Shown: positions 4,404 through 39,790 of the stretch, piece after piece
Position numbering within the stretch: the stretch's first letter is position 1
How the letters are laid out: every line of letters begins with the position of its first letter
Source: a virus
Taxonomy: Duplodnaviria; Heunggongvirae; Uroviricota; Caudoviricetes
Reading direction: 5' to 3' (one strand)
Virus record (IMG/VR): IMGVR_UViG_3300045988_153358
DNA: 48,302 nt
Made by a program: the position numbers and the translations under genes
Notes under the pieces: model-generated
Told to the model about the DNA's origin: nothing
What the model saw: only the letters and a program-made list of their open reading frames with translations
The model's database searches: none

Positions 4404-4426
4404 ACCGTAACGATAACGAACAACGA

Positions 4427-4452
4427 GCCTCGGCAATTGCCGGGGCTTTTTT
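4427..4452 (+). terminator. Rho-independent terminator
   Basis: GCCTCGGC/GCCGGGGC stem then TTTTTT. Confidence 0.6.
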
Positions 4453-4477
4453 ACATCCAGACAAAGGAGAACATGGG

Positions 4478-4933
4478 ATGCCTTCGACAAGCACCAAAAA
4501 AGAAATGGCGGTTAGTGATGTGCTTTACGCGCTTTCGACTATATGTGACGGAGCAATGATGAGGATGAAAGTCCTCCATGAAGCATACGGAAAAAGTCAC
4601 GATGAGGCAGCTAAAGAATGCCTGAATGAGATTGTGGACTTCATTGATAGCCATCGGTCGCTGATAGCTCTCGATAACCATCCGCAAGCCGAAGAATGCC
4701 AGAAGCGCGAGTATAAAACGATATATGGGAATAAGTTCTTCTGTCTAAGCGAGTTGGCTGCAAAGGTGGCCGACATTCTGGAGAACAACGGCGGTCGAAT
4801 GCATCAGGTTAGCTATCTGGCTGAATATGAATCTCTAATCATGTTAGTTGATCATTTAGTTGATACAGGAGCTTTACAGCTCAACTGCCTAAGGCTATCT
4901 GGTCACCCGATAAAAATGAATGGAAGGATATAA
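4478..4933 (+). CDS. hypothetical protein (151 aa)
   Basis: ORF track; AGGAG 8 nt upstream of ATG. Confidence 0.6.
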   Translation: MPSTSTKKEMAVSDVLYALSTICDGAMMRMKVLHEAYGKSHDEAAKECLNEIVDFIDSHRSLIALDNHPQAEECQKREYKTIYGNKFFCLSELAAKVADILENNGGRMHQVSYLAEYESLIMLVDHLVDTGALQLNCLRLSGHPIKMNGRI

Positions 4934-5340: not shown

Positions 5341-5751
5341 ATGGAAAAGAAAGAAGATAAACCGATTGCCATTGGTGCAGAGTCTGTTCCGTTTAAGTTT
5401 GAATTATCCCAACTGGTAACAATGCGTATCAGTGAAGAGTGGGGAGAAGTTCAAGCCCGTGCTCAGTATGCAAATGGCGAAAACCAGTATCTGATTCACT
5501 ATCAGGCGGCTGATGGCCGTGCTACCACAGAGTGGTTCGGTGAGTCGATGCTGATTGCGATGGAGGATAAACGTCATCCTGGCTGCCCTGTTTTTGCCTG
5601 TATTGATTTGCCAGAAGGCGCGGTACTTGAAGACGACAAAGAAGAATGGTCGCCTGATGGCGAACTTGTCATTACCGGAATCGTGGATGGTAAGCCGGAA
5701 TATTCCCGTATTGAGGTAAATAACGGCCACATCTGTTTGATCCCTGCGTAA
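5341..5751 (+). CDS. hypothetical protein (136 aa)
   Basis: internal ATG with AGGTGA Shine-Dalgarno downstream of the terminator. Confidence 0.55.
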   Translation: MEKKEDKPIAIGAESVPFKFELSQLVTMRISEEWGEVQARAQYANGENQYLIHYQAADGRATTEWFGESMLIAMEDKRHPGCPVFACIDLPEGAVLEDDKEEWSPDGELVITGIVDGKPEYSRIEVNNGHICLIPA

Positions 5752-5985
5752 CGCATTACAGCAGCTCTTGTGCTAATCAGGGGCTGCGATAATGCGCAAA
5801 CCAAAGCTGCCTCATTAACTCCAGCTCGCTGTGGAGTTAATGCTGGTGGCTTTTTTATTACTGGAAGGTGGGCGACCGCCGTCAGTTGCGACCTGACGAC
5901 AGTCATTCATACCCACAGGGTGCCGTGGATACAAACCGAGGCCCACTTGCTTGCACAAGCGAGGGGATTTTAGCGGATAAACGGC

Positions 5986-6609
5986 ATGACAAAACATCTT
6001 AATGTGGTTTCTTTACCACTTTCTGTGTTGATTGGTTATGAAAAGAACGCTCGCACACACTCCGTGGAGCAGGTAGATCAGATTGTTGCCAGCATACAGG
6101 AGTACGGATGGACTAATCCGATCCTGATAGACGAGAACAACGTTGTAATTGCTGGTCATGGTCGAATTGCTGCGGCCACTCAGTTGGGGATGGATGATGT
6201 TCCCTGCATTGTTCTGGCTGGGCTAACGGAGAATCAGAAGAAGGCATATCGTCTGGCCGACAACCGTATTCCGCTGAATGCTGGTTGGGATGAAGAGTTG
6301 TTAAGCGCGGAGCTTGCAGATCTTGCGGCCGATGATTTTGCTCTGGACTCAATTGGTTTTACTCAGCGCGAACTGGATAACTTATTGAGTGCGGCGGTCT
6401 ACGATGACACAGAGGGTATGGATATCCCATTTGAGAAGGATGAGGCCAAATCAGGCGTAAAAGTTCAGTACCTGTCATTTGGAGGTCATAAAATCCCGGC
6501 AACGGATGAGGAAGCGGATCGTTTTGACTGCGCGGTGTCTCGTTATGTTGATGATAATGGCAGCTATATCGGATTTGTATCCGCATTGCTGGCTGGGGAG
6601 GTGTGCTGA
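5986..6609 (+). CDS. ParB-like nuclease domain protein (copy 1)
   Basis: ParB N-terminal domain motifs (IAGHGR, KKAYRLADN); paralog of 9275-9865. Confidence 0.75.
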   Translation: MTKHLNVVSLPLSVLIGYEKNARTHSVEQVDQIVASIQEYGWTNPILIDENNVVIAGHGRIAAATQLGMDDVPCIVLAGLTENQKKAYRLADNRIPLNAGWDEELLSAELADLAADDFALDSIGFTQRELDNLLSAAVYDDTEGMDIPFEKDEAKSGVKVQYLSFGGHKIPATDEEADRFDCAVSRYVDDNGSYIGFVSALLAGEVC

Positions 6610-7982
6610 TGCTTCACCTGAATTACGACATAACGCACCTACGCGGCGCGGAATATAACCCGCGTTTTATCGGTGAGGATGATCTTGCGAGGCTGGCGGA
6701 AAGCGTCAGGGAGCTGGGGCTTGTGAAGCCATTGATAGTGCGCGGCGATTTGCTGGTGGCGGGACACCAAAGGACGAAGGCGCTACGTAAGTTGGGAATA
6801 ACGCGTGCTGCGGTGTATGTGTTGCCCTGTGAAACGACGGTATACGACGAAGTACGGTTTAACCAACTGCATAACGGAACGGATTTTGATAGCGGAGATG
6901 AGCGTTGCAGGGTGTCCGGTCTGGAAGATAAGCATGGTTTTGTTCAGGTATCGGCAAGCCAGATCTCAGGCAATATGCGCGCGAAAATGGCATATGTTCG
7001 AAAGAACATAGCGGAACTGGTTATCAAGTATGGTCCGTGGGGTGGTTGTGTTGCTACTCAGTCTGGTGAGGTTATTCACTGTGCTCAGTATGCATTAGCA
7101 GCGAAAATGACGCGCACACCGCTAACGGTGTTTGTGATCCCTGATGTTGAGAAGGAAAAATACCAAAGTTATCTGAATAAAACTTATGGTGTATTTGAGT
7201 ATTCTCATCTGGAGAAAACAACATACATCCAGACGTATGCGCAGCTTATGCGGTTGCGTAATGGTGGCAGCCTGAAATCAAACCTGTATGAGTCGTTGAT
7301 CCTCCCGATCATTGCCAAGACGCCAAGAGGAATTGATTTTGGTTCGGGGCAGGGAGACTACGCGCGAATGCTCAGGGCAAAGGGATATAACCTGCATGAT
7401 CTCGAGCTTTTCCGCCGTAAGGGCGCTGGAAACACTCTGGATAGGACCGCAACAAACCGGATGATTGATACGCTGGTGGACGACTTAAAAACGCGAGGGC
7501 GTTACGACTACGTGATTTGCGATAGCGTTTTGAACTCGGTCGATAGTGTCGAGGCTGAATGGTCTGTTCTGACGGTTCTGAAAGGCCTGTGTAAAGCTGG
7601 TGGGTCAATATTCTTTTCTGGTCGTAGCCGTGGAGAGCTGGAAACAGTCCTGAAGCAAACACAAGCGGCGAGTTCCAAAAGCCGGCTTTATTTTATTGAT
7701 CATAACGGTTTTACCGCGTTGTACCGGAAGGGGCACTGGTTTTACCAGAAGTTTCACTCTGATGATGAAGTGAAGCAGTTGTGTCGTGTACATGGTTTCA
7801 GGATTAAGCGGTCAATATTCAACTGTAAGAGCTGGTATTTGCACGTCATTAACGATGATTCCCTTAGTTGGGCGAGTCTGGAGAAAGCTGTTCGTTTTGA
7901 GTTTGAGTTGCCGTTGCCTGGTGGTTCAACAATCGGACGATCTGATGATGTGCTGGCGGCTTTCCGGCCGCTGATTAAGTAG
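6609..7982 (+). CDS. ParB-like N-terminal domain fused to a class I SAM-dependent methyltransferase-like domain
   Basis: N-terminal LVAGHQR ParB-like motif; downstream DFGSGQG, DYVICDSVL and LCKAGGSIFFS resemble methyltransferase motifs I-III; no DPPY/NPPY motif. Confidence 0.6.
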   Translation: MLHLNYDITHLRGAEYNPRFIGEDDLARLAESVRELGLVKPLIVRGDLLVAGHQRTKALRKLGITRAAVYVLPCETTVYDEVRFNQLHNGTDFDSGDERCRVSGLEDKHGFVQVSASQISGNMRAKMAYVRKNIAELVIKYGPWGGCVATQSGEVIHCAQYALAAKMTRTPLTVFVIPDVEKEKYQSYLNKTYGVFEYSHLEKTTYIQTYAQLMRLRNGGSLKSNLYESLILPIIAKTPRGIDFGSGQGDYARMLRAKGYNLHDLELFRRKGAGNTLDRTATNRMIDTLVDDLKTRGRYDYVICDSVLNSVDSVEAEWSVLTVLKGLCKAGGSIFFSGRSRGELETVLKQTQAASSKSRLYFIDHNGFTALYRKGHWFYQKFHSDDEVKQLCRVHGFRIKRSIFNCKSWYLHVINDDSLSWASLEKAVRFEFELPLPGGSTIGRSDDVLAAFRPLIK

Positions 7983-31685: not shown

Positions 31686-32155
31686 AAGATAATCATGTGA
31701 CCAATTATTGTAATAATTTTAATGGTATGTTTCTACTGGCTATCCAGCGTGTCTGATATCCAGTAACAAATCGTCAACACGGGTGCAATCAAATGGTGAG
31801 TGTTAAGACTGACCACTTATTACCAGGTATGAGTGGCCAGCATTAAATCAGAACAGCCCTTTAACTGAACTGGCCGCGCTGTTAAGGGATGATGTCACCT
31901 TATCTTTGAAGCCGGACAGCATATTGCTGAACGATGAGTTTACCGCAGGTTTCTGGCTGGGAATCATTGACTGGAGTTAGGCCAGTAGTATGATGCTCGC
32001 AAAACGAGATCCAATTTAGATCCTTTTACTGGTGGATTATCGTTCGATCAGTGAGAGACTTCGTGCATGACCGAAAGTGTTGTGGTAGAGTTCTCTTAAA
32101 ACCACGTAACGTGGTTATGATTGTGGGTGTCTGGTTGGAAAGTGACCAGATATGG

Positions 32156-32268
32156 AAACAAAAAGCCCGCAGATAAATCTGCGGGCTTCTTGCGACATCC
32201 ACGGAAAACCAACAATTAACCATGGGCGCCTCGACAACTCCCATTATACGTTGGTTTTCCGTGGACGC
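32156..32268 (-). ncRNA. candidate CopA-like antisense RNA region for repA control
   Basis: 16-bp perfect inverted repeat 32198-32213 / 32250-32265 with about 36-nt loop; 10-bp hairpin 32163-32188 followed on the minus strand by a U-run. Confidence 0.45.
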
Positions 32269-32280
32269 AAGAGCGAACAT

Positions 32281-33129
32281 ATGGATAGACCAATGCCGTC
32301 TCTACGTTCAGCTTACGTTTGTAATTTGTCGCCGGAGTTCCAGCGTCCAAAGCACCATACGCACAAGCTGCCGCTGGTGTTATCTGATGCTTTACAGCGC
32401 ATTAATGGGCGTGATCTTACGTGTGAGGTTGCGTTCTACGTTAATCAACCGTCAGAGCGGAAGCGCCGGATAAACGAGCATCGTCGTCGGGCGATTAATG
32501 CTGTGATCGCTGCGATTTTGCACCATGTAAACATCATTTCTAAGCGGGTTCTGGCTAGTGCTGAGGCGTTGGCTGATTTTTGCGGCCTGTCTACCGTATC
32601 CGAAGCTGGGAACAAGTCTATAACGCGCTGTACAAGGGCGTTGTCGCAACTGAAAGCGTTAGGTTTTATTGATTATGAACGTCGCTGGGATCGGGTGAAT
32701 AAACAGTATTGGCCAGCGAAAATAGAGATTCGTGATCAACTGCTGGAAACCGTTGGTATTACTGAACAAGCATGGAGACGTGCGGTTAGCCAGAAACTTA
32801 ATTACTTCAATGCGAAGAATAGCGAACGGCTTAAAAAAGCGATAACGGAGGCTGATTATAAGCGTATTGTTATTCAGGAGCAGATGGAGAATGTATGGCG
32901 TCAGAGGAAGACGGCCAGAGAGATAAAGGCAAAACAGAAAGCAGCGGAGAGAGCTGCGCGTCTTGTTCGGGAAAAGGGAGAGGCCGAACTTCGTCATCAA
33001 ATCACCAGAGAGGTTAGTCAGGAATTTGCTGATGGCATGTATCCTGGTGCTGACCTTGCATATTTACGATCCCTCGTTGAGCAGCGTTATAACAGGTTAA
33101 GAAAGACCTGGAAATCACTCCAACATTAA
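32281..33129 (+). CDS. repA: plasmid replication initiator RepA, IncFII RepA1-like
   Basis: central region (GLSTVSEAGNKSITRCTRALSQLKALGFIDYE) closely resembles R100/R1 RepA1; ORF extends upstream to 32152 but that stretch holds the stem-loops. Confidence 0.75.
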   Translation: MDRPMPSLRSAYVCNLSPEFQRPKHHTHKLPLVLSDALQRINGRDLTCEVAFYVNQPSERKRRINEHRRRAINAVIAAILHHVNIISKRVLASAEALADFCGLSTVSEAGNKSITRCTRALSQLKALGFIDYERRWDRVNKQYWPAKIEIRDQLLETVGITEQAWRRAVSQKLNYFNAKNSERLKKAITEADYKRIVIQEQMENVWRQRKTAREIKAKQKAAERAARLVREKGEAELRHQITREVSQEFADGMYPGADLAYLRSLVEQRYNRLRKTWKSLQH

Positions 33130-33772: not shown

Positions 33773-34060
33773 ATGGATAAAGATACTGTTTTAAAAATGT
33801 TGAATCCGGCTTGTTTAAAAAAAGCGGATGAATGGGAATCTCCTACATGTGGAGAAGTTCGGGCAGTCATTGGCCTGACCGGAATGAGCGGCTCGCAGTT
33901 AGCCAAAAAACTAGGCTTAAAAGATAGTCGCAATGTTCGCAACTGGCAGATGTTAAAGGAGTCCACATCCAGATCCAGCATTCCGTATGCAGCCTGGGCG
34001 CTGCTGTGTTACTTCGCTGGGTTAGGGTTAATCTTCATTGATAACAAAACAGATGTTTGA
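33773..34060 (+). CDS. hypothetical HTH protein with C-terminal transmembrane helix (95 aa)
   Basis: HTH-like GMSGSQLAKKLGL, hydrophobic IPYAAWALLCYFAGLGLIFI; GGAG Shine-Dalgarno. Confidence 0.5.
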   Translation: MDKDTVLKMLNPACLKKADEWESPTCGEVRAVIGLTGMSGSQLAKKLGLKDSRNVRNWQMLKESTSRSSIPYAAWALLCYFAGLGLIFIDNKTDV

Positions 34061-34083
34061 AACATGCAAATATGAGGTTTGTT

Positions 34084-34347
34084 ATGGAACTTGTACGCAA
34101 AACACGCAAAGAGTTCTTGGACCTGTATCGCATGGGAGCTTTCACTTGTGTTGTGGCTACCCAGGACGAAGTGACAAAAAGCTGGCGGCTTTTTGCTCTC
34201 AATAAAAAAGGGATTGCCGTTTTCATTGAAAAAGCCCGTGGTGGTATCCGCGAATGGGCGGGATTGAATTATGTGGCTGATTTTTGCGCAGCTATGGGGA
34301 TTCGTCGCTGGGAAGTCCATATGCCAGGAGTAAAGTCACAAAAATAG
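34084..34347 (+). CDS. hypothetical protein (87 aa)
   Basis: ORF track; internal ATG with GAGG Shine-Dalgarno. Confidence 0.45.
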   Translation: MELVRKTRKEFLDLYRMGAFTCVVATQDEVTKSWRLFALNKKGIAVFIEKARGGIREWAGLNYVADFCAAMGIRRWEVHMPGVKSQK

Positions 34348-34535
34348 GGCTTTCGCGTCGAAAATGAGGCGAAACTGAAAACGAGATTTCATTAACAAAT
34401 AAGCAACATAAAAAACGGTGGAAAACGCCCAGGAAAACATGATCTTTTGAGCGGATTTTTTAGATCCGACAATGAACGGTGATCCGGTGGTGCCGATAAC
34501 GTCCATTATGTTAAATAGCCCCGTTTTTCTTGAAA

Positions 34536-34581
34536 TTATAACTCACAGGTTATATAGTTAGTGATATAAACTACAGGTTAT
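34536..34581 (+). promoter_or_regulatory. two dyad-symmetric operator-like sites upstream of the toxin-antitoxin operon
   Basis: TATAAC-N6-GTTATA at 34536-34553 and TATAAA-N6-GTTATA at 34564-34581. Confidence 0.5.
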
Positions 34582-34591
34582 AGGATTGAGC

Positions 34592-34939
34592 ATGTGGACG
34601 GTACTTTTTAGCCAGCGATTTGACGACTGGCTAAATGAGCAAGAAGACGCTCTTCAGGAAAAGGTTTTGGCTGATTTGAAAAAGCTACAGGTTTACGGAC
34701 CTGAGTTACCCAGGCCATATGCCGATACCGTAAAAGGTTCTCGGTACAAAAATATGAAAGAGCTTCGCGTTCAGTTTTCTGGCCGTCCGATAAGAGCCTT
34801 TTATGCGTTCGATCCGATTCGCCGGGCCATCGTTCTTTGTGCAGGAGACAAAAGTAACGATAAGCGGTTTTATGAAAAACTGGTGCGTATAGCTGAGGAT
34901 GAGTTTGCAGCACATCTGAACACACTGGAGAGCAAGTAA
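34592..34939 (+). CDS. type II toxin, RelE/ParE superfamily (gp49/HigB-like)
   Basis: 115 aa; MWTVLF start, ELPRPYADTVKGSRYKNMKELR and VLCAGDKSNDKRFYE patterns; upstream of HTH partner. Confidence 0.75.
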   Translation: MWTVLFSQRFDDWLNEQEDALQEKVLADLKKLQVYGPELPRPYADTVKGSRYKNMKELRVQFSGRPIRAFYAFDPIRRAIVLCAGDKSNDKRFYEKLVRIAEDEFAAHLNTLESK

Positions 34940-35238
34940 TGAGAACATTAGATGAGGCGATTGCCAGCCGTTCACCTGAAAGCCAGGCGCGAATTAAAGA
35001 AATGGCAGATGAGATGATTCTTGAGGTCGGCTTGCAGATGATGCGTGAAGAACTCCAGTTATCACAAAAACAGGTTGCTGAGGCGATGGGTATAAGCCAG
35101 CCAGCAGTAACAAAGCTGGAGCAGCGCGGAAATGATTTAAAGCTGGCGACATTAAAGCGTTACGTTGAAGCTATGGGAGGCAAATTAAGCCTGGATGTTG
35201 AGCTTCCCACAGGAAAACGAATAGCGTTTAACATCTGA
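34939..35238 (+). CDS. HTH (XRE-type) antitoxin
   Basis: 99 aa; HTH LSQKQVAEAMGISQPAVTKLE; ATG overlaps toxin stop. Confidence 0.75.
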   Translation: MRTLDEAIASRSPESQARIKEMADEMILEVGLQMMREELQLSQKQVAEAMGISQPAVTKLEQRGNDLKLATLKRYVEAMGGKLSLDVELPTGKRIAFNI

Positions 35239-35252
35239 TCAGAACGAATGAT

Positions 35253-35280
35253 AAGCCCCTGTTGCAAAGGGGCTTTTTTG
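35253..35280 (+). terminator. Rho-independent terminator
   Basis: AAGCCCCT/AGGGGCTT stem followed by TTTTTT. Confidence 0.7.
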
Positions 35281-35285
35281 CGCTC

Positions 35286-35401
35286 ATAGAATTATATAAT
35301 TATAGATTTATATAAAAAGTGCTTTACAGGTGGGAAAAAATTTCCTAAGGTTATACCCGAAACCGAGCGATACCCGCCCTGGTTAAACCGGAGATAACCC
35401 G
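35286..35401 (+). promoter_or_regulatory. promoter-leader cassette copy 2
   Basis: 118/119 identical to 3821-3939; the single mismatch is in the candidate -10 (TAAGGT versus TATGGT). Confidence 0.7.
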
Positions 35402-35782
35402 ATGAGCATGATTAAAATCCGCAAAAACGCTTTCCTTAAAATTCAAACTATCCTGGCTGGTTCTGTTGGCGTGATTTGCCGTTCTTCTTCAAGCCGCATC
35501 GATGACGGCTACGATGATGAGTATCGTTTGTCCTCGTGCGATGAGGCTTTAACCTGGCTGAAGGAGAATCAGGAACGTGCCCAGGTATATCTGGAAACAG
35601 AGAACGGCAATCAGATGCTCCGTATTAGCGGTCGTTATGGATTTGAAACCACATTCATGGCCTATTTTAATCAGGCTTACTTTGACAAGGAGTTGGCCTG
35701 GTACACTGATCGCATGAGCAAAAGCGAGCCAGCCCCGATTACACCGCCGAACGATAAACCATTTTTATTCCTCGTTAAGTAA
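35402..35782 (+). CDS. hypothetical protein (126 aa)
   Basis: ORF track; conserved leader and ribosome-binding site. Confidence 0.6.
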   Translation: MSMIKIRKNAFLKIQTILAGSVGVICRSSSSRIDDGYDDEYRLSSCDEALTWLKENQERAQVYLETENGNQMLRISGRYGFETTFMAYFNQAYFDKELAWYTDRMSKSEPAPITPPNDKPFLFLVK

Positions 35783-35790
35783 ACACAATG

Positions 35791-35817
35791 CGCAAAGTGT
35801 CAAAATGACACTTTGCG
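35791..35817. other. 12-bp perfect hairpin between convergent genes (possible bidirectional terminator)
   Basis: CGCAAAGTGTCA-AAA-TGACACTTTGCG; no clear U-run on either strand. Confidence 0.4.
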
Positions 35818-35885
35818 AGTGTTAATATAGGGGGCGTTTGAAGATAGATAACTTATTGTGGGGCAAGCCGATAACTTACATTGGG

Positions 35886-36311
35886 TTAGCTTGAATAGGT
35901 AGTTGGTATTTTGAGCATATGGCCAATCTCTTCGAGATGCTTAGATGGATTCTCCCCAGTCTTACCTTCATGTATTGACGCTATATAGTTCAAATTTTGA
36001 GCTGCCCCAAGAATCTCGGTGGCTGATGGAACAAGACGAAAGCCGATATGTAACTTTTTGATATAGAAAGGTAAAGTGGAATATTTCGCCATTAACTGTG
36101 CTGCGGAATCTTTTAGATCATGAATGATTTCTGGCTTTAAGTTCGAGCCAGGATTCACTATTTTTGCTTGGTTACACAATAACAGATTGGATATTTTCCC
36201 TAGCTGTTCCCTGAATGAAATGTAAGGCTCAATAGCTCCTTTGACGATGAGTTGGCCTAGAACAAAAACACTTACACCAGTGACCACGGTGACAAAAGCA
36301 GATGAACTCAT
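35886..36311 (-). CDS. hypothetical membrane-anchored protein (141 aa) in an AT-rich moron
   Basis: N-terminal helix AFVTVVTGVSVFVLGQLIV; own flanking hairpin and promoter region. Confidence 0.55.
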   Translation of the reverse strand: MSSSAFVTVVTGVSVFVLGQLIVKGAIEPYISFREQLGKISNLLLCNQAKIVNPGSNLKPEIIHDLKDSAAQLMAKYSTLPFYIKKLHIGFRLVPSATEILGAAQNLNYIASIHEGKTGENPSKHLEEIGHMLKIPTTYSS

Positions 36312-36412
36312 TTTTTACCTAAAGCCTAAAGATTGGATTGTTAATACATCTTATTTTGTCGTGAGTGGCTATGTCTAATTTATTGAATATCTAGGGAAAG
36401 GTAGAGGATGTA

Positions 36413-36673
36413 ATGACGGGTTACGAATTGAAATTATGGCGTCGTGGGATGAACTGGACGCAGGAGCGAGCCGCCGAAGAGTTTGGGATATCGTTGGCTA
36501 CATATAAGCGATATGAGAAGGGTGAGCCGCCGAGGGTCATTGAGATGGCCATTCGCGTTCTGTCGTTTGACGATATGGTTAAGGATCTTTCACACCTTGA
36601 TAAAGATGTGATTCTGTTAAGGCTGCAAACCCTTGTATGGGAAAAGGTTAAAGTGTCGTCAGAATTGGAATAA
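36413..36673 (+). CDS. HTH (XRE-type) transcriptional regulator
   Basis: 86 aa; HTH WTQERAAEEFGISLATYKRYEKGE; divergent from the membrane protein. Confidence 0.65.
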   Translation: MTGYELKLWRRGMNWTQERAAEEFGISLATYKRYEKGEPPRVIEMAIRVLSFDDMVKDLSHLDKDVILLRLQTLVWEKVKVSSELE

Positions 36674-36734
36674 GGGATCAAATGATCCTTTACGGATCGT
36701 TTTATGGTGGTGTAATGTAAGCGCCAGAAAGACA

Positions 36735-36758
36735 AAAACCGCCTTGCCGGGCGGTTTT
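36735..36758. terminator. bidirectional Rho-independent terminator
   Basis: AAAACCGC/GCGGTTTT stem flanked by A- and T-runs. Confidence 0.6.
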
Positions 36759-37295
36759 CAGTCTGAAATTTAAATCTTGCTTGGTAGGCTGGATTTAAAA
36801 AGACACCTCTTGATTGGGGCGGCTTTCTTGCGTCTAAAGATAATCAAATCTTTTTGCGCCTGCAACCCCTTTTTTACTGGTGCCCATTTCAGACTCACGC
36901 TCGCGTCGTTGTCTTTGCCACTTCGTTGGGTTCGGTGTTTTTGGGCGAAGTGGCGCGCGGGTATGCGTACAAGGGGAAAGTGTGCTGACGCAAGCCAGGA
37001 ACAGCGATCTAAACTAAGTCGAGTCTGAGAAAGGCAGGAGTGCGACAACTCGCCTGTGCTCTATGAGCAGAAGAAGGTATATCAGACGACCAATGGCATG
37101 ATTGTGGGCCACAGGGCGCACACGGCGGCGAAGCATTGGAAACGATGTGGAGCTATCTGGTGGCATGAGTTCCGGTACTCGATCTCGAGCTTTTTTTGAT
37201 GCTTTTGAGAAGGGGCCGGAACTCCGGTAAAGGGCACCCTGTATGGGGGGAGGGGGGGTTGTGTCTGAAGGGTGGTTATCGGTTATGGTGGAATT

Positions 37296-37484
37296 ATGAT
37301 GCGTAGAAAAGCGAGTTTGCTGCAAGCTGTTGGGTCCATTATTTCTTTGTTTCCGGCAGTTGATCATTTTCGTCATATGGCGACACGTTCCAGTATGGGC
37401 TTAGCGCGTGATGCTGACGCTATTCGAAAGGATTTTCAGAAAGTCTCTGGCGTTGATAAGAGAGAAAAGAGTAAGGGGCCGTAG
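37296..37484 (+). CDS. possible small protein (62 aa)
   Basis: ATG with GGTGGA upstream; stop lies in the hairpin 37473-37490. Confidence 0.3.
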   Translation: MMRRKASLLQAVGSIISLFPAVDHFRHMATRSSMGLARDADAIRKDFQKVSGVDKREKSKGP

Positions 37485-37494
37485 CCCCTTGTAG

Positions 37495-38694
37495 TTATGG
37501 TCTGCTCTTCTGTGCCAGCTTATCAGCACATGTTTTTATCAGATCCTGTAGTGTCCTGGCTGGCAGGTTTGCATCCAGTACGCTGAGTATGCTGTTGTGA
37601 TCTGCTTGGTCGACTACTTTGCCTGTCGGTGGTAGTAGCTTGAGCTGAGGATTCAGGTTTTCGTCAAAGCTGATAAGTGCTCTGGCGTTTCTGAGCAGAT
37701 CAAGAAGTAAGGCTGATATCACATTTTCCTGAGTCATTGCTGACAGATTTAGCGCCGCTTTGGTTTTCCCTGTTGCCTTGTCAAACTCCTTGATTAGTTC
37801 CTTCCTGTAGTTCGGTTCCGTTAATAGCCGATTATGCTCTGTTGCCGCGCGGATAATCGTTTTTTCCTGGTACAGTCGTTTAGCCAGATCACGCTCGTAC
37901 TGTGTTTTTAACACGCTGCTGATAGCGTTAAAGGCTTCAATGTAGGCCAGCTTGATATCTTTCACGCCTGGACCGTCGATACTTTCCATGAGCAAGGTAA
38001 ATCCGTCTTTTGTCATGCGATAGATTGTTATTTCGCGGTCGCTTCCTTCCAGCGGTCGTTGCTCTTTAAAGAAATGACGTGCCGCAGCTGTGCGAGGAAT
38101 GCGTAACGCATCGATGGCCATAACGATGGAATTGTTTGTGGTGCTGAATGCCTGGGCAACATCGGCTGAGGTTGTGAGTGGCTCGTTGTTGCACACCTTA
38201 ATGTAAAACATCGGTTTGGCGTTGAGCGTATCGACAACCTCACGAGCATTGTTTGGCGAGACGGTTACGGTCGCGGCCGTTTGTGTGTTCTGGCTGAAAT
38301 AGCAGTCTTCCAGCCGTTCGAACACATCCCAAGCCTGATCGGTTTCAAGCATTTTGGCGTGACGTGCAGCCCCGCGTTCTGTCCAGAGAATGAGGGAGCG
38401 GGCTTTCGGGGAAATTTGTAACCCTCTTAAAGATGGTTGCACATTTTGTGAGTTACTTAAAGTAACCCGCAAATTTTGTGAGTGACTTAAAGTCACTCGC
38501 AAAGTTTTTAACTCATCGCCAGCCACTTTGAAAAAATGCTTTCCTTCAATAAAGCGGTTTGCGTTACGTGAGTAATTTTTTTTGATGTTATCAACGTCTG
38601 TGCCGTATAGCTTTGCCAGTAGTTCAGTAGTGATAACGGGGATCTGGTTATGCAGGATAGGCTGTAGGGTGTTAACGGTCGGAAGCGTTTTCAT
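37495..38694 (-). CDS. antirepressor-like protein (ORF6N/KilA-type N-terminus, Rha-like C-terminal part)
   Basis: ITTELLAKLYGTDVDNIKKNYSRNANRF motif; downstream of a small overlapping ORF and structured RNA region. Confidence 0.65.
   Translation of the reverse strand: MKTLPTVNTLQPILHNQIPVITTELLAKLYGTDVDNIKKNYSRNANRFIEGKHFFKVAGDELKTLRVTLSHSQNLRVTLSNSQNVQPSLRGLQISPKARSLILWTERGAARHAKMLETDQAWDVFERLEDCYFSQNTQTAATVTVSPNNAREVVDTLNAKPMFYIKVCNNEPLTTSADVAQAFSTTNNSIVMAIDALRIPRTAAARHFFKEQRPLEGSDREITIYRMTKDGFTLLMESIDGPGVKDIKLAYIEAFNAISSVLKTQYERDLAKRLYQEKTIIRAATEHNRLLTEPNYRKELIKEFDKATGKTKAALNLSAMTQENVISALLLDLLRNARALISFDENLNPQLKLLPPTGKVVDQADHNSILSVLDANLPARTLQDLIKTCADKLAQKSRP
38443..38502. repeat. two tandem 30-bp dyad-symmetric repeats inside the antirepressor gene
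   Basis: ATTTTGTGAGTTACTTAAAGTAACCCGCAA then ATTTTGTGAGTGACTTAAAGTCACTCGCAA; arms GTTAC/GTAAC versus GTGAC/GTCAC. Confidence 0.8.
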
Positions 38695-38882
38695 TTTGCA
38701 CCTCCCATAACTACTTTGGTTACGAGGGAGATTTTTGCGTCAGAAACAGCGTTATCGTTGCTGGCGATGCGCATAGCTTCGCGCTCGATGATTTCAGCCA
38801 GGCGGAATTTATCGGCGTATGAGGCTTTCTTGAGAAGGATCTTTACGAGGTTGACGTAATAGTCATGGGGTAGGTTTGTCAT
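38691..38882 (-). CDS. small ORF (63 aa) overlapping the antirepressor start; icd-like position
   Basis: 4-nt overlap with downstream gene; AGGGA Shine-Dalgarno. Confidence 0.45.
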   Translation of the reverse strand: MTNLPHDYYVNLVKILLKKASYADKFRLAEIIEREAMRIASNDNAVSDAKISLVTKVVMGGAK

Positions 38883-39046
38883 TGTGATGATTCCCTTAAA
38901 GGTTAAGGATACTCACCACCGTCAGGTTCCAATCATTGGGTGGTGAGACGTGCAGGGTTGGAACTACCGGACACAATGACGAACCGGCGAGTCTTACGAC
39001 TCCCCCGCACGCCCCACCATAATTTGGGTGTAGCAGTGCTTTACGC

Positions 39047-39150
39047 ATAAAAAAACCGCTAACGCGGTATGCGCCATTGTGTCTACGGGGTTCCAATCCC
39101 GACCGTAGATTTTGCTACGGCTCGGAAAGTGTCCACCAATGGCGCATTCA
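39047..39150 (-). ncRNA. candidate c4-like antisense sRNA (5-prime end not determined)
   Basis: minus-strand hairpin ACCGC-GUUA-GCGGU plus U7 at 39049-39068; stem CCGUAG/CUACGG; GAUUGGAACC element repeated in the leader at 38925-38936 and complementary to 38954-38964. Confidence 0.35.
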
Positions 39151-39638
39151 TGTCAATACGGCGGGATTTTAACAGAGACAACCACATAGCGTGGGTTTAT
39201 TGGTAGGCAGAAACAAAAAAACCGCCCTATTGAGGACGGTTCTTTCGTGCTGATCGGATTCGCGGTCCTTTCAGCATAACGTCGTTGTATAAACAACCAC
39301 GCAAGCACAAGCAGCAAGTTAATTTTACCCAAAAGGTAATAATAGTCCACTATTATGCTTCAAAAAATTGTGGTTCTTGTTGTGCCTGCAAACTCACAGA
39401 TTGTGGGTAGGTTACTGATTTTGTGAAAATAAACGAGTTTTTTCGTTTAATTTCTTTCCTATTACTAATCTTAAAATAATCGTAAAATACCTGTGGACCT
39501 TCCCGCCGATTCGCACCCGGGCACCGACTTTAGGGGAGGATTCTCCGTTGCCGTACATGCAAGCACAAGCAGCCGTGCTTGCTCTCGCGTTGTTTTCGTC
39601 GGTGGGGATGCCGTGAAACGGCCTGTAAGGGCCATACA

Positions 39639-39761
39639 ATGAAAAAATACTGTATGTGTATTTTTATCGTTGTTACTGGGGCTTTGTTTACGCCACATGG
39701 GGAGGGTTGGAAGATTACTGATAACGCTCTGAATGTGACGATAAACATTAGCAGCAAGTAG
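39639..39761 (+). CDS. possible small hydrophobic peptide (40 aa)
   Basis: AAGGG Shine-Dalgarno 8 nt upstream; translation MKKYCMCIFIVVTGALFTPHGEGWKITDNALNVTINISSK; strong terminator follows. Confidence 0.3.
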   Translation: MKKYCMCIFIVVTGALFTPHGEGWKITDNALNVTINISSK

Positions 39762-39766
39762 CGATT

Positions 39767-39790
39767 AGGCCCCTTCGGGGGCCTTTTTTA
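39767..39790 (+). terminator. Rho-independent terminator with UUCG tetraloop
   Basis: AGGCCCC-TTCG-GGGGCCT followed by TTTTT. Confidence 0.75.

Follow-up and report, generated by a model that had tools for sequence, protein, structure and literature searches.

The DNA analysed here is IMG/VR virus record IMGVR_UViG_3300045988_153358, 48,302 nucleotides long and called the window below. It is an Escherichia coli phage-plasmid of about 48 kb with tail, head and lysis genes; 47-50-kb plasmids identical or near-identical to it are present in E. coli, and the Yersinia pestis phages vB_YpM_39, vB_YpM_41 and vB_YpM_44 show about 98% identity to it over the parts in common. Our subject is a short segment in the maintenance/immunity part of this element, where a gene for a 141-amino-acid (aa) membrane protein sits between two co-directional backbone genes and is oriented opposite to both. 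An earlier reading of this DNA (hereafter the original prediction) had described there an open reading frame (ORF) on the opposite strand whose product has one N-terminal transmembrane (TM) helix, a 12-bp perfect hairpin, and an 86-aa helix-turn-helix (HTH) regulator of the XRE type that ends at a bidirectional terminator, and all of these were recovered. The ORF lies at 35886-36311 (-), and its product has a single strongly hydrophobic segment. The XRE/HTH_3 gene, at 36413-36673 (+), is divergent from it at a distance of 101 bp (Pfam HTH_3, E = 5.8e-7; phrog_6962; 86 aa in the window, 90 aa in relatives), and downstream of it is a bidirectional terminator-like hairpin at 36733-36760. On the other side, convergent with the 141-aa gene, lies a 126-aa backbone gene (35402-35782) that belongs to phrog_8090, a family of unknown function, and had no match in Pfam or NCBIfam.

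The hairpin between the two convergent genes is a perfect palindrome of 27 nt (12-bp stem, 3-nt loop) at 35791-35817, with a folding energy of -20.5/-21 kcal/mol (z = -4.7/-5.1), and none of 200 shuffled sequences was equally stable. It is situated 68 bp beyond the stop codon of the 141-aa gene and is probably a shared terminator of this gene and the 126-aa gene. No hairpin was found downstream of the stop codon within the inserted DNA delimited below, although homologues of the gene elsewhere do carry downstream hairpins. The 57 bp that separate the stop codon from the left end of the insert hold two direct repeats, GATAACTTATTGTGGG and GATAACTTACATTGGG, at 35847-35885, which were detected by a repeat search. 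Upstream of the gene, a consensus scan and an alignment of upstream regions point to a sigma-70-like promoter at 36348-36377 (-), TAGACA-18 nt-TAAGAT, a consensus match whose activity is predicted from sequence. It is followed by a Shine-Dalgarno-like AGGT at 36317-36320 (-), with five A's between AGGT and the ATG.

Comparison with close relatives shows how this arrangement arose. In BLAST alignments with vB_YpM_41, homology runs across 34000-35828, stops, and restarts at 36413, the ATG of the HTH gene. In vB_YpM_39 and in the plasmid of E. coli ATCC 25922 the site is empty, i.e. the hairpin is followed by a sequence ending in ...GTGTTAATAT-TGTGCGAGGAGGATGCT and then by the ATG of the HTH gene. 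BLAST breakpoints and base-level alignments place the inserted cassette at 35829-36412 (584 bp), with a left junction 11 bp from the hairpin and a fuzzy right edge, the true junction being at about 36400-36412; approximately 570-584 bp in the window stand in place of approximately 10-17 bp of the empty site, directly upstream of the HTH start codon. The motif GAGGATG (36401-36407) is common to the right edge of the cassette and to the empty site, and since the right junction falls within or next to it, the HTH gene has kept its GAGGA ribosome-binding site after the insertion. Across 72 complete E. coli genomes with this backbone locus, the site was filled in 13 and empty (as a 792-bp span) in 59. 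The flanks of the filled plasmids are 98.5-100% identical to those of the window and the flanks of the empty ones at most 97.8%, which is consistent with a single gain of the cassette in one sub-lineage. By these alignments, the DNA from 35829 to about 36405 is a genuine insertion.

The HTH gene, the 35791-35817 hairpin and the terminator were all found in sister genomes that have no 141-aa gene. Because they are present with or without the cassette, comparative evidence assigns them to the backbone and not to the cassette. The original prediction had seen in the membrane protein and the XRE regulator a self-contained layout, and this part of it did not survive the comparison. A module of two genes, with the divergent XRE protein as dedicated regulator of the membrane protein, is contradicted by the comparative data and very improbable: all 59 E. 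coli plasmids with an empty site, as well as the Yersinia phages, carry the HTH gene at 97-99% identity, homology restarts exactly at its start codon, about 14 other contexts in which the 141-aa family occurs have no adjacent HTH gene, and the promoter of the family is conserved independently of an HTH neighbour. Two divergent genes 101 bp apart make incidental cross-regulation physically possible, but the pairing as such is best read as an accident of the insertion site.

The same junction holds another element in vB_YpM_41 and vB_YpM_44, where a 323-bp miniature element lies immediately 5' of the HTH start codon, at about 4549-4871 in vB_YpM_41 (context L001, OR545054.1), corresponding to 36412/36413 of the window. 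Its ends are inverted repeats of 26 bp, GGGGTTCCGTGGG(A/C)ATTTCTGCGATAA, and the target sequence GCTAT (5 bp) is duplicated. Repeats beginning in GGGG together with a 5-bp duplication suggest a Tn3-derived miniature element. With this miniature inverted-repeat transposable element as a second insert at the same junction, the intergenic spot has been hit at least twice.

The original prediction had also called the segment visibly AT-richer and had asked for GC and codon usage to be compared. Locally this is so, the GC content of the cassette being 39.0% vs about 46% in the two flanking genes, but it is no statistical sign of foreign origin. When 584-bp windows were taken across the whole stretch, the mean GC was 44.5% (standard deviation 4.5%), so that the cassette falls within 1.2 standard deviations, and 15.8% of such windows, mostly in the phage's own structural genes, are as low in GC or lower. 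The GC content at third codon positions of the 141-aa ORF (0.37) also falls within the range of the phage structural genes (0.27-0.40). Composition by itself would not mark the cassette as foreign, and its AT-richness is weak evidence; it is comparative genomics, rather than composition, that supports acquisition.

What moves appears to be very small. DNA similarity between replicons is limited to 35893-36379, which equals the ORF plus its promoter, and homology to a P1-like plasmid reaches 36379. The promoter element, TAGACA/TAGACG-N17-18-TA(A/G)GAT, is kept upstream of homologues in the window and in five of the six other contexts compared (L003, L006, L010, L011 and L014, the last with TAGCAT as its -10 box); in the remaining one, L012, only the -10 box is present, a neighbouring gene having replaced the -35 box. 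A Shine-Dalgarno sequence, (T/C)AGGT, is likewise conserved in most homologous contexts compared, with CAGGA in L014. Given these conserved promoter and Shine-Dalgarno positions, the alignments identify the conserved 'MSSS' methionine as the true start; the 8-residue N-terminal extensions of some database entries begin a few bases past the -10 box. Across about 14 distinct contexts of the family no recurrent partner gene was found. Since no neighbour recurs and DNA homology is limited to the ORF and promoter, the mobile unit is, by sequence comparison, one gene with its own promoter, i.e. a cassette of approximately 0.5 kb comprising promoter, ribosome-binding site and ORF.

Two candidates for a partner were considered and rejected. 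The 159/167-aa TM protein encoded next to the family gene in L006 and L011 is missing from the other contexts and, with an hhalign probability of 0.4%, is no paralogue; a 158-aa gene in L030 is unrelated. The former belongs to a set of unannotated neighbours that combine a TM helix at the N-terminus with a helical domain, located at 4404-4883 (-) in L006, 6022-6525 (-) in L011 and 6626-7165 (-) in L024; they are 159, 167 (54% identical to each other) and 179 aa long, and had no Pfam match and no detectable kinship to the 141-aa family. A separate observation concerns 26-bp repeats, CTGGAC-N14-GTCCAG, that on Salmonella and E. coli plasmids flank the family gene as well as further accessory genes, Abi_2 for example (L006, 4939-4964 and 5488-5512; L010, 4940-4965 and 5986-6011; L011, 3657-3682 and 4940-4965; L012, 5458-5483). 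The copy on the upstream side adjoins the -35 box, which is also the exact point where homology between different plasmids begins. Recombination or operator function is conceivable for these repeats, which the window lacks.

The segment had been predicted to be a horizontally acquired moron, and in this respect the prediction was borne out. The moron concept (Juhala/Hendrix) is summarised in PMC3594210, which also gives the precedent of a moron whose small inner-membrane product stops the genome from entering. Extra DNA that close relatives lack at the same position is what we observed, with 59 of the 72 E. coli plasmids and vB_YpM_39 having the empty site; the gene has a conserved promoter-like element of its own, and it recurs as a lone insert in unrelated elements. 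The concept further includes a promoter active in the repressed prophage, a terminator, which the insert lacks, and a base composition unlike that of neighbouring genes. We therefore consider with high confidence that the cassette is an acquired single-gene moron.

The 141-aa protein matches phrog_7512, which has no annotated function, over its entire length (E = 2.8e-74, positions 1-141 of 141) and contains all the motifs of the family, so that it is a member of this TM-bundle family. It had no match in Pfam, NCBIfam or PADLOC (0 PADLOC hits); 74 diverse family members gave no Pfam hit either, nothing usable in NCBIfam, and in PADLOC only two marginal hits, each to a single member. A word-indexed search retrieved only 37 clusters, whereas an exhaustive profile search retrieved 704 representative clusters at E <= 1e-3 (124 at E <= 1e-10), clustered at 50% identity and a minimum for the size of the family. 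The family is thus far larger than phrog_7512 and mostly found outside sequenced phages. Its members are nearly all 140-150 aa long and align end to end.

The N-terminus of the protein is strongly hydrophobic (best 19-residue Kyte-Doolittle mean 2.23, at residues 5-23; next best outside residues 1-30, 0.75). According to the positive-inside rule, membrane topology can be read from the distribution of lysine and arginine, and in all 74 aligned members there are more such residues after the hydrophobic segment (counting the 15 residues that follow it) than before it (means 2.69 vs 0.18), while the tail preceding it has a median length of 3 residues. Because of this excess of Lys/Arg after the segment, the protein is predicted, with good support, to be a single-pass inner-membrane protein with its N-terminus out and C-terminus in, exposing about 3 residues to the periplasm. 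An AlphaFold2 model built from the 74-sequence alignment (predicted local distance difference test 94.3, predicted template modelling score 0.85) has helices at residues 2-46, 60-78, 97-116 and 123-133, the TM part (approximately 4-23) running into the first helix of the bundle. This prediction lends good support to a TM helix continuous with a non-enzymatic cytoplasmic four-helix bundle of about 115 residues. Taken together, we are fairly confident of the membrane topology and fold.

The fold does not reveal the function, as a Foldseek search of the PDB with this high-confidence model gave no specific match (best E = 0.24). A fold search of BFVD found nothing, and the profile matches obtained against PDB sequences, to Mediator Med9 (E = 0.005) and to the anti-sigma factor RsgI2 (E approximately 0.5), were dismissed as chance-level. 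No His, Asp, Cys, Arg or Lys is conserved in the family alignments in the manner of catalytic residues, and a HEPN-like R-x4-6-H motif was ruled out, there being no conserved Arg or His. A holin or antiholin was ruled out as well, given the N-out/C-in topology and the lack of lysis genes on the plasmids that make up most of the carriers. The near-invariant positions are G12 and Q20, both within the hydrophobic helix, and P29, L45, P95, N108 and L133, and the conserved motifs are GV.VFV.GQ, E-P after the TM helix, QAKITN, L-P, L-N and a C-terminal I-x-T-x-Y (I-P-T-T-Y in the window). The sequence of the TM helix, including its polar Gln, is conserved very highly even between members with 25-30% overall identity. 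Such conservation exceeds the needs of membrane anchoring, and the glycine and intramembrane glutamine point to specific helix-helix contacts.

Another explanation is that the protein is an abortive-infection effector, in which the bundle would sense a phage product and the Gly/Gln-containing TM helices would oligomerise into a pore, collapsing the membrane potential so that the infected cell dies before phage release. This would be a sub-case of an anti-phage role. Apart from the conservation of the helix, the cytoplasmic position of the domain fits it, some contexts of the gene have Abi_2, toxin-antitoxin or ThsA-like neighbours, and defence systems often use TM proteins to kill the infected cell (PMC9122126). 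Yet there is only one TM helix per chain and no partner gene that could act as sensor, no similarity to known TM effectors was detected, and the promoter looks constitutive, so the protein would have to stay harmless until triggered. We consider this explanation unlikely.

Relatives of the gene occupy accessory positions in many kinds of elements. The P1-like phage D6 and D6-like plasmids carry homologues that are 56-82% identical, placed immediately behind humD with phd/doc alongside; other P1-like phage-plasmids have the family gene no more than about 2 kb from a Tad2-like (anti-Thoeris) gene. Four lambdoid prophage backgrounds (L020-L025) carry it alone on the opposite strand, inserted where the replication genes (lambda-P/DnaB) give way to ninB/NinG/Q. 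A P2-like prophage of Chromohalobacter israelensis (CP000285.1, L019) has it on the opposite strand between the tail-fibre gene G and the sheath gene FI. This slot corresponds to that of the non-essential P2 conversion gene Z/fun and, like the lambdoid replication-to-nin slot, is among the variable positions that family members use. As regards the slot of the cassette in the present phage-plasmid, we know of no description of it as a hotspot. The L019 slot does not match the P2 hotspot of Rousset et al., which is old/tin. In L019, three consecutive opposite-strand genes for predicted membrane proteins occupy 5566-7493, one of them being the family member Csal_1381. Other carriers are a P4-like element of Pseudoalteromonas (L018), an element resembling a phage-inducible chromosomal island (PICI; L028), in which the gene adjoins the integrase and HigBA, and a metagenomic contig (L026), in which it stands beside a ThsA-Macro gene. 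In PLSDB the family gene was found on 347 plasmids, 264 of them predicted to be conjugative, among rep, par, resolvase and toxin-antitoxin genes, and in individual cases beside an Abi_2 or an EcoRII-type endonuclease gene. Neighbours across contexts thus include Abi_2, EcoRII-C, ThsA-Macro and ParE/Phd. Such a distribution is that expected of lysogenic-conversion cargo, and for defence it is circumstantial. Validated defence cassettes are also known to move among P2/P4 elements, plasmids and phage-plasmids (PMC9122126, PMC13586616).

For a gene so common on conjugative plasmids, one may also consider a housekeeping or host-modulating role unrelated to phages, for example as a membrane adaptor that tunes a host protease, the divisome, a transporter, or a secretion or conjugation apparatus, and thereby stabilises carriage of the element or lowers its cost. 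On plasmids the gene always lies in the rep/par/resolvase/toxin-antitoxin maintenance region and not in recognised defence islands, and a helical bundle without enzymatic features is what one typically finds in adaptor or binding proteins. For maintenance, though, the gene is dispensable, as only 18% of the phage-plasmids, which are near-identical in other respects, have it. Moreover, its carriers (lambdoid, P2, P4, PICI and P1-like elements and plasmids) have no maintenance machinery in common, and the opposite-strand layout with its own promoter seen in prophages is a signature of lysogenic-conversion cargo (PMC3594210). We judge such a role rather doubtful. The proximity to a Tad2-like gene in P1-like phage-plasmids raises another explanation, that the protein is an anti-defence or counter-exclusion factor shielding the element from membrane-associated immunity of the host or of a rival, and cargo of this kind is common on mobile elements. 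Nevertheless, the prophage copies run against the early and late operons from their own promoter, so that expression would be in the lysogen and not at entry, the plasmid copies are not in the leading region, and no similarity to known anti-defence proteins was found; this explanation is quite improbable.

The role suggested by the original prediction was superinfection exclusion or abortive infection. We propose that, as long as the element resides as a plasmid or prophage, the sigma-70-type promoter of the cassette would drive transcription of the gene, and that the product may benefit the carrier by keeping infecting phages out at the inner membrane. In the route that we favour, the conserved TM helix and the membrane-proximal bundle would disturb the trans-membrane DNA channel of the infecting phage, following the logic of HK97 gp15 and P22 SieA, the latter an inner-membrane protein that blocks DNA entry (PMC10883804). 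In the alternative route, a sensor-effector would oligomerise and depolarise the membrane, as in abortive infection. That the protein acts against phages by one route or the other, in exclusion or in defence, seems plausible to us, although it falls somewhat short of being probable. All that speaks for it is location, the logic of expression and membrane topology. More specifically, but also more tentatively, the protein might be the founding member of a new and widespread family of single-gene anti-phage immunity proteins acting at the cytoplasmic face of the inner membrane; such a family would block genome entry or trigger membrane collapse and would move as a minimal promoter-plus-ORF cassette, a further part of the proposal that we hold just as tentatively.

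Several points weigh against an anti-phage role. With about 3 residues in the periplasm, the protein could make no contact with phage tails there, unlike several superinfection-exclusion (Sie) proteins. The promoter, on which the expression logic depends, was recognised by a consensus match. With most plasmid carriers conjugative, a role in plasmid biology is equally natural, and guilt by location is a weak argument, accessory slots also housing cargo that is not defensive. Furthermore, two large defence screens, DefensePredictor 2026 and Vassallo 2022, have no accessions of the family in their supplements, which means only that the family is unreported there. Searches of PADLOC, Pfam, NCBIfam and PDB (sequence and fold) gave no homology to known Sie, Abi (abortive-infection) or defence proteins, and we found no similarity to SieA, SieB, Imm, Sp, gp15/YebO, Cor, Rex, the Abi families or PADLOC systems. 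A literature search by accession, PHROG identifier and the names of the Yersinia phages found nothing on the family.

The surrounding backbone has several further features. An IncFII-type RepA is encoded at 32152-33129 (NCBIfam NF040977, E = 2e-68). Two genes upstream of the cassette site, at 34586-35238, are a HigB-like toxin gene (Gp49/RelE-ParE superfamily) and an overlapping HTH_3 antitoxin gene. On the other side of the cassette lies a P1/P7-style immI region (37495-39789) with a Rha/ORF6N antirepressor gene (37495-38694, -), a C4 antisense RNA (38936-39024, -) and isrK (39049-39121, -); there is also a match to a ryfA-family RNA at 39493-39789 (+). Between the terminator of the HTH gene and the antirepressor gene there are about 720 bp (36770-37490) with a GC content of 50-52% and no convincing ORF; only a 61-62-aa ORF at the right-hand end is annotated in relatives of this region, and plasmid NZ_CP032259 has an IS21 just past that ORF, upstream of the antirepressor gene. 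The loop of the 35791-35817 palindrome is AAA in the window and TTT in the ATCC 25922 plasmid and the Yersinia phages, a difference that amounts to either an inversion of the whole 27-mer or three substitutions. With the TTT loop, the + strand contains a perfect TTGACA that precedes the start codon of the HTH gene by 44 bp, so the palindrome might also act on this gene as a promoter or operator element. Copies of its half-site as possible operators were discounted: the only exact matches were the hairpin's own halves, and near-matches were at chance level.

If the cassette is protective, it would be among the smallest self-contained immunity cassettes known, approximately 0.5 kb encoding one non-enzymatic membrane protein, and it would help explain differences in phage sensitivity among near-identical clinical E. 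coli whose phage-plasmid is filled or empty at this site. Natural isogenic pairs make this directly testable, the ATCC 25922 plasmid being empty and the ECONIH1 and AR_0067 plasmids filled. Whatever the function, the boundaries of the module are corrected, with the XRE gene outside it, and an unannotated family of several hundred clusters is seen to ride in the accessory slots of many element types. The architecture alone would be no surprise to a specialist.

Among known systems, one close parallel is HK97 gp15 (Cumby et al. 2012; PMC3594210). Like the cassette, it adds one small gene to a phage genome whose synteny is otherwise intact, with its own transcription signals and expression from the prophage (predicted in the case of the cassette), and its product is likewise a small inner-membrane protein without an enzymatic motif, proposed to act on genome entry. 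In contrast, gp15 is YebO-like, and the 141-aa protein has no detectable sequence relationship to it; unlike gp15, the 141-aa protein has a cytoplasmic four-helix bundle of about 115 residues and almost nothing in the periplasm. The location differs too, the cassette being in the plasmid-maintenance/immunity region and gp15 in the tail operon. P22 SieA (PMC10883804) is also an inner-membrane protein expressed by the prophage, of about 160 aa; a single gene suffices for its exclusion, and a conserved motif is predicted on the cytoplasmic side, another likeness to the 141-aa protein. SieA, however, has three (or four) predicted TM segments vs one here, shows no sequence similarity to the 141-aa protein, and is confined to P22-like phages, whereas the 141-aa family spans many element types as well as conjugative plasmids.

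A third comparison is with the defence hotspots of P2 (old/tin) and P4 (psu-int) (PMC9122126, PMC13586616). Family members fill equivalent variable slots as opposite-strand inserts and, like validated defence genes, the cassette occurs in phages, satellites, plasmids and phage-plasmids. None of the systems catalogued in these hotspots matches the 141-aa gene (PADLOC was negative), and occupancy of a hotspot is circumstantial. A moron that encodes a small inner-membrane protein is of a well-known kind. The protein family itself lacks annotation, has no kinship to the known examples, and is much larger than one would gather from the databases.

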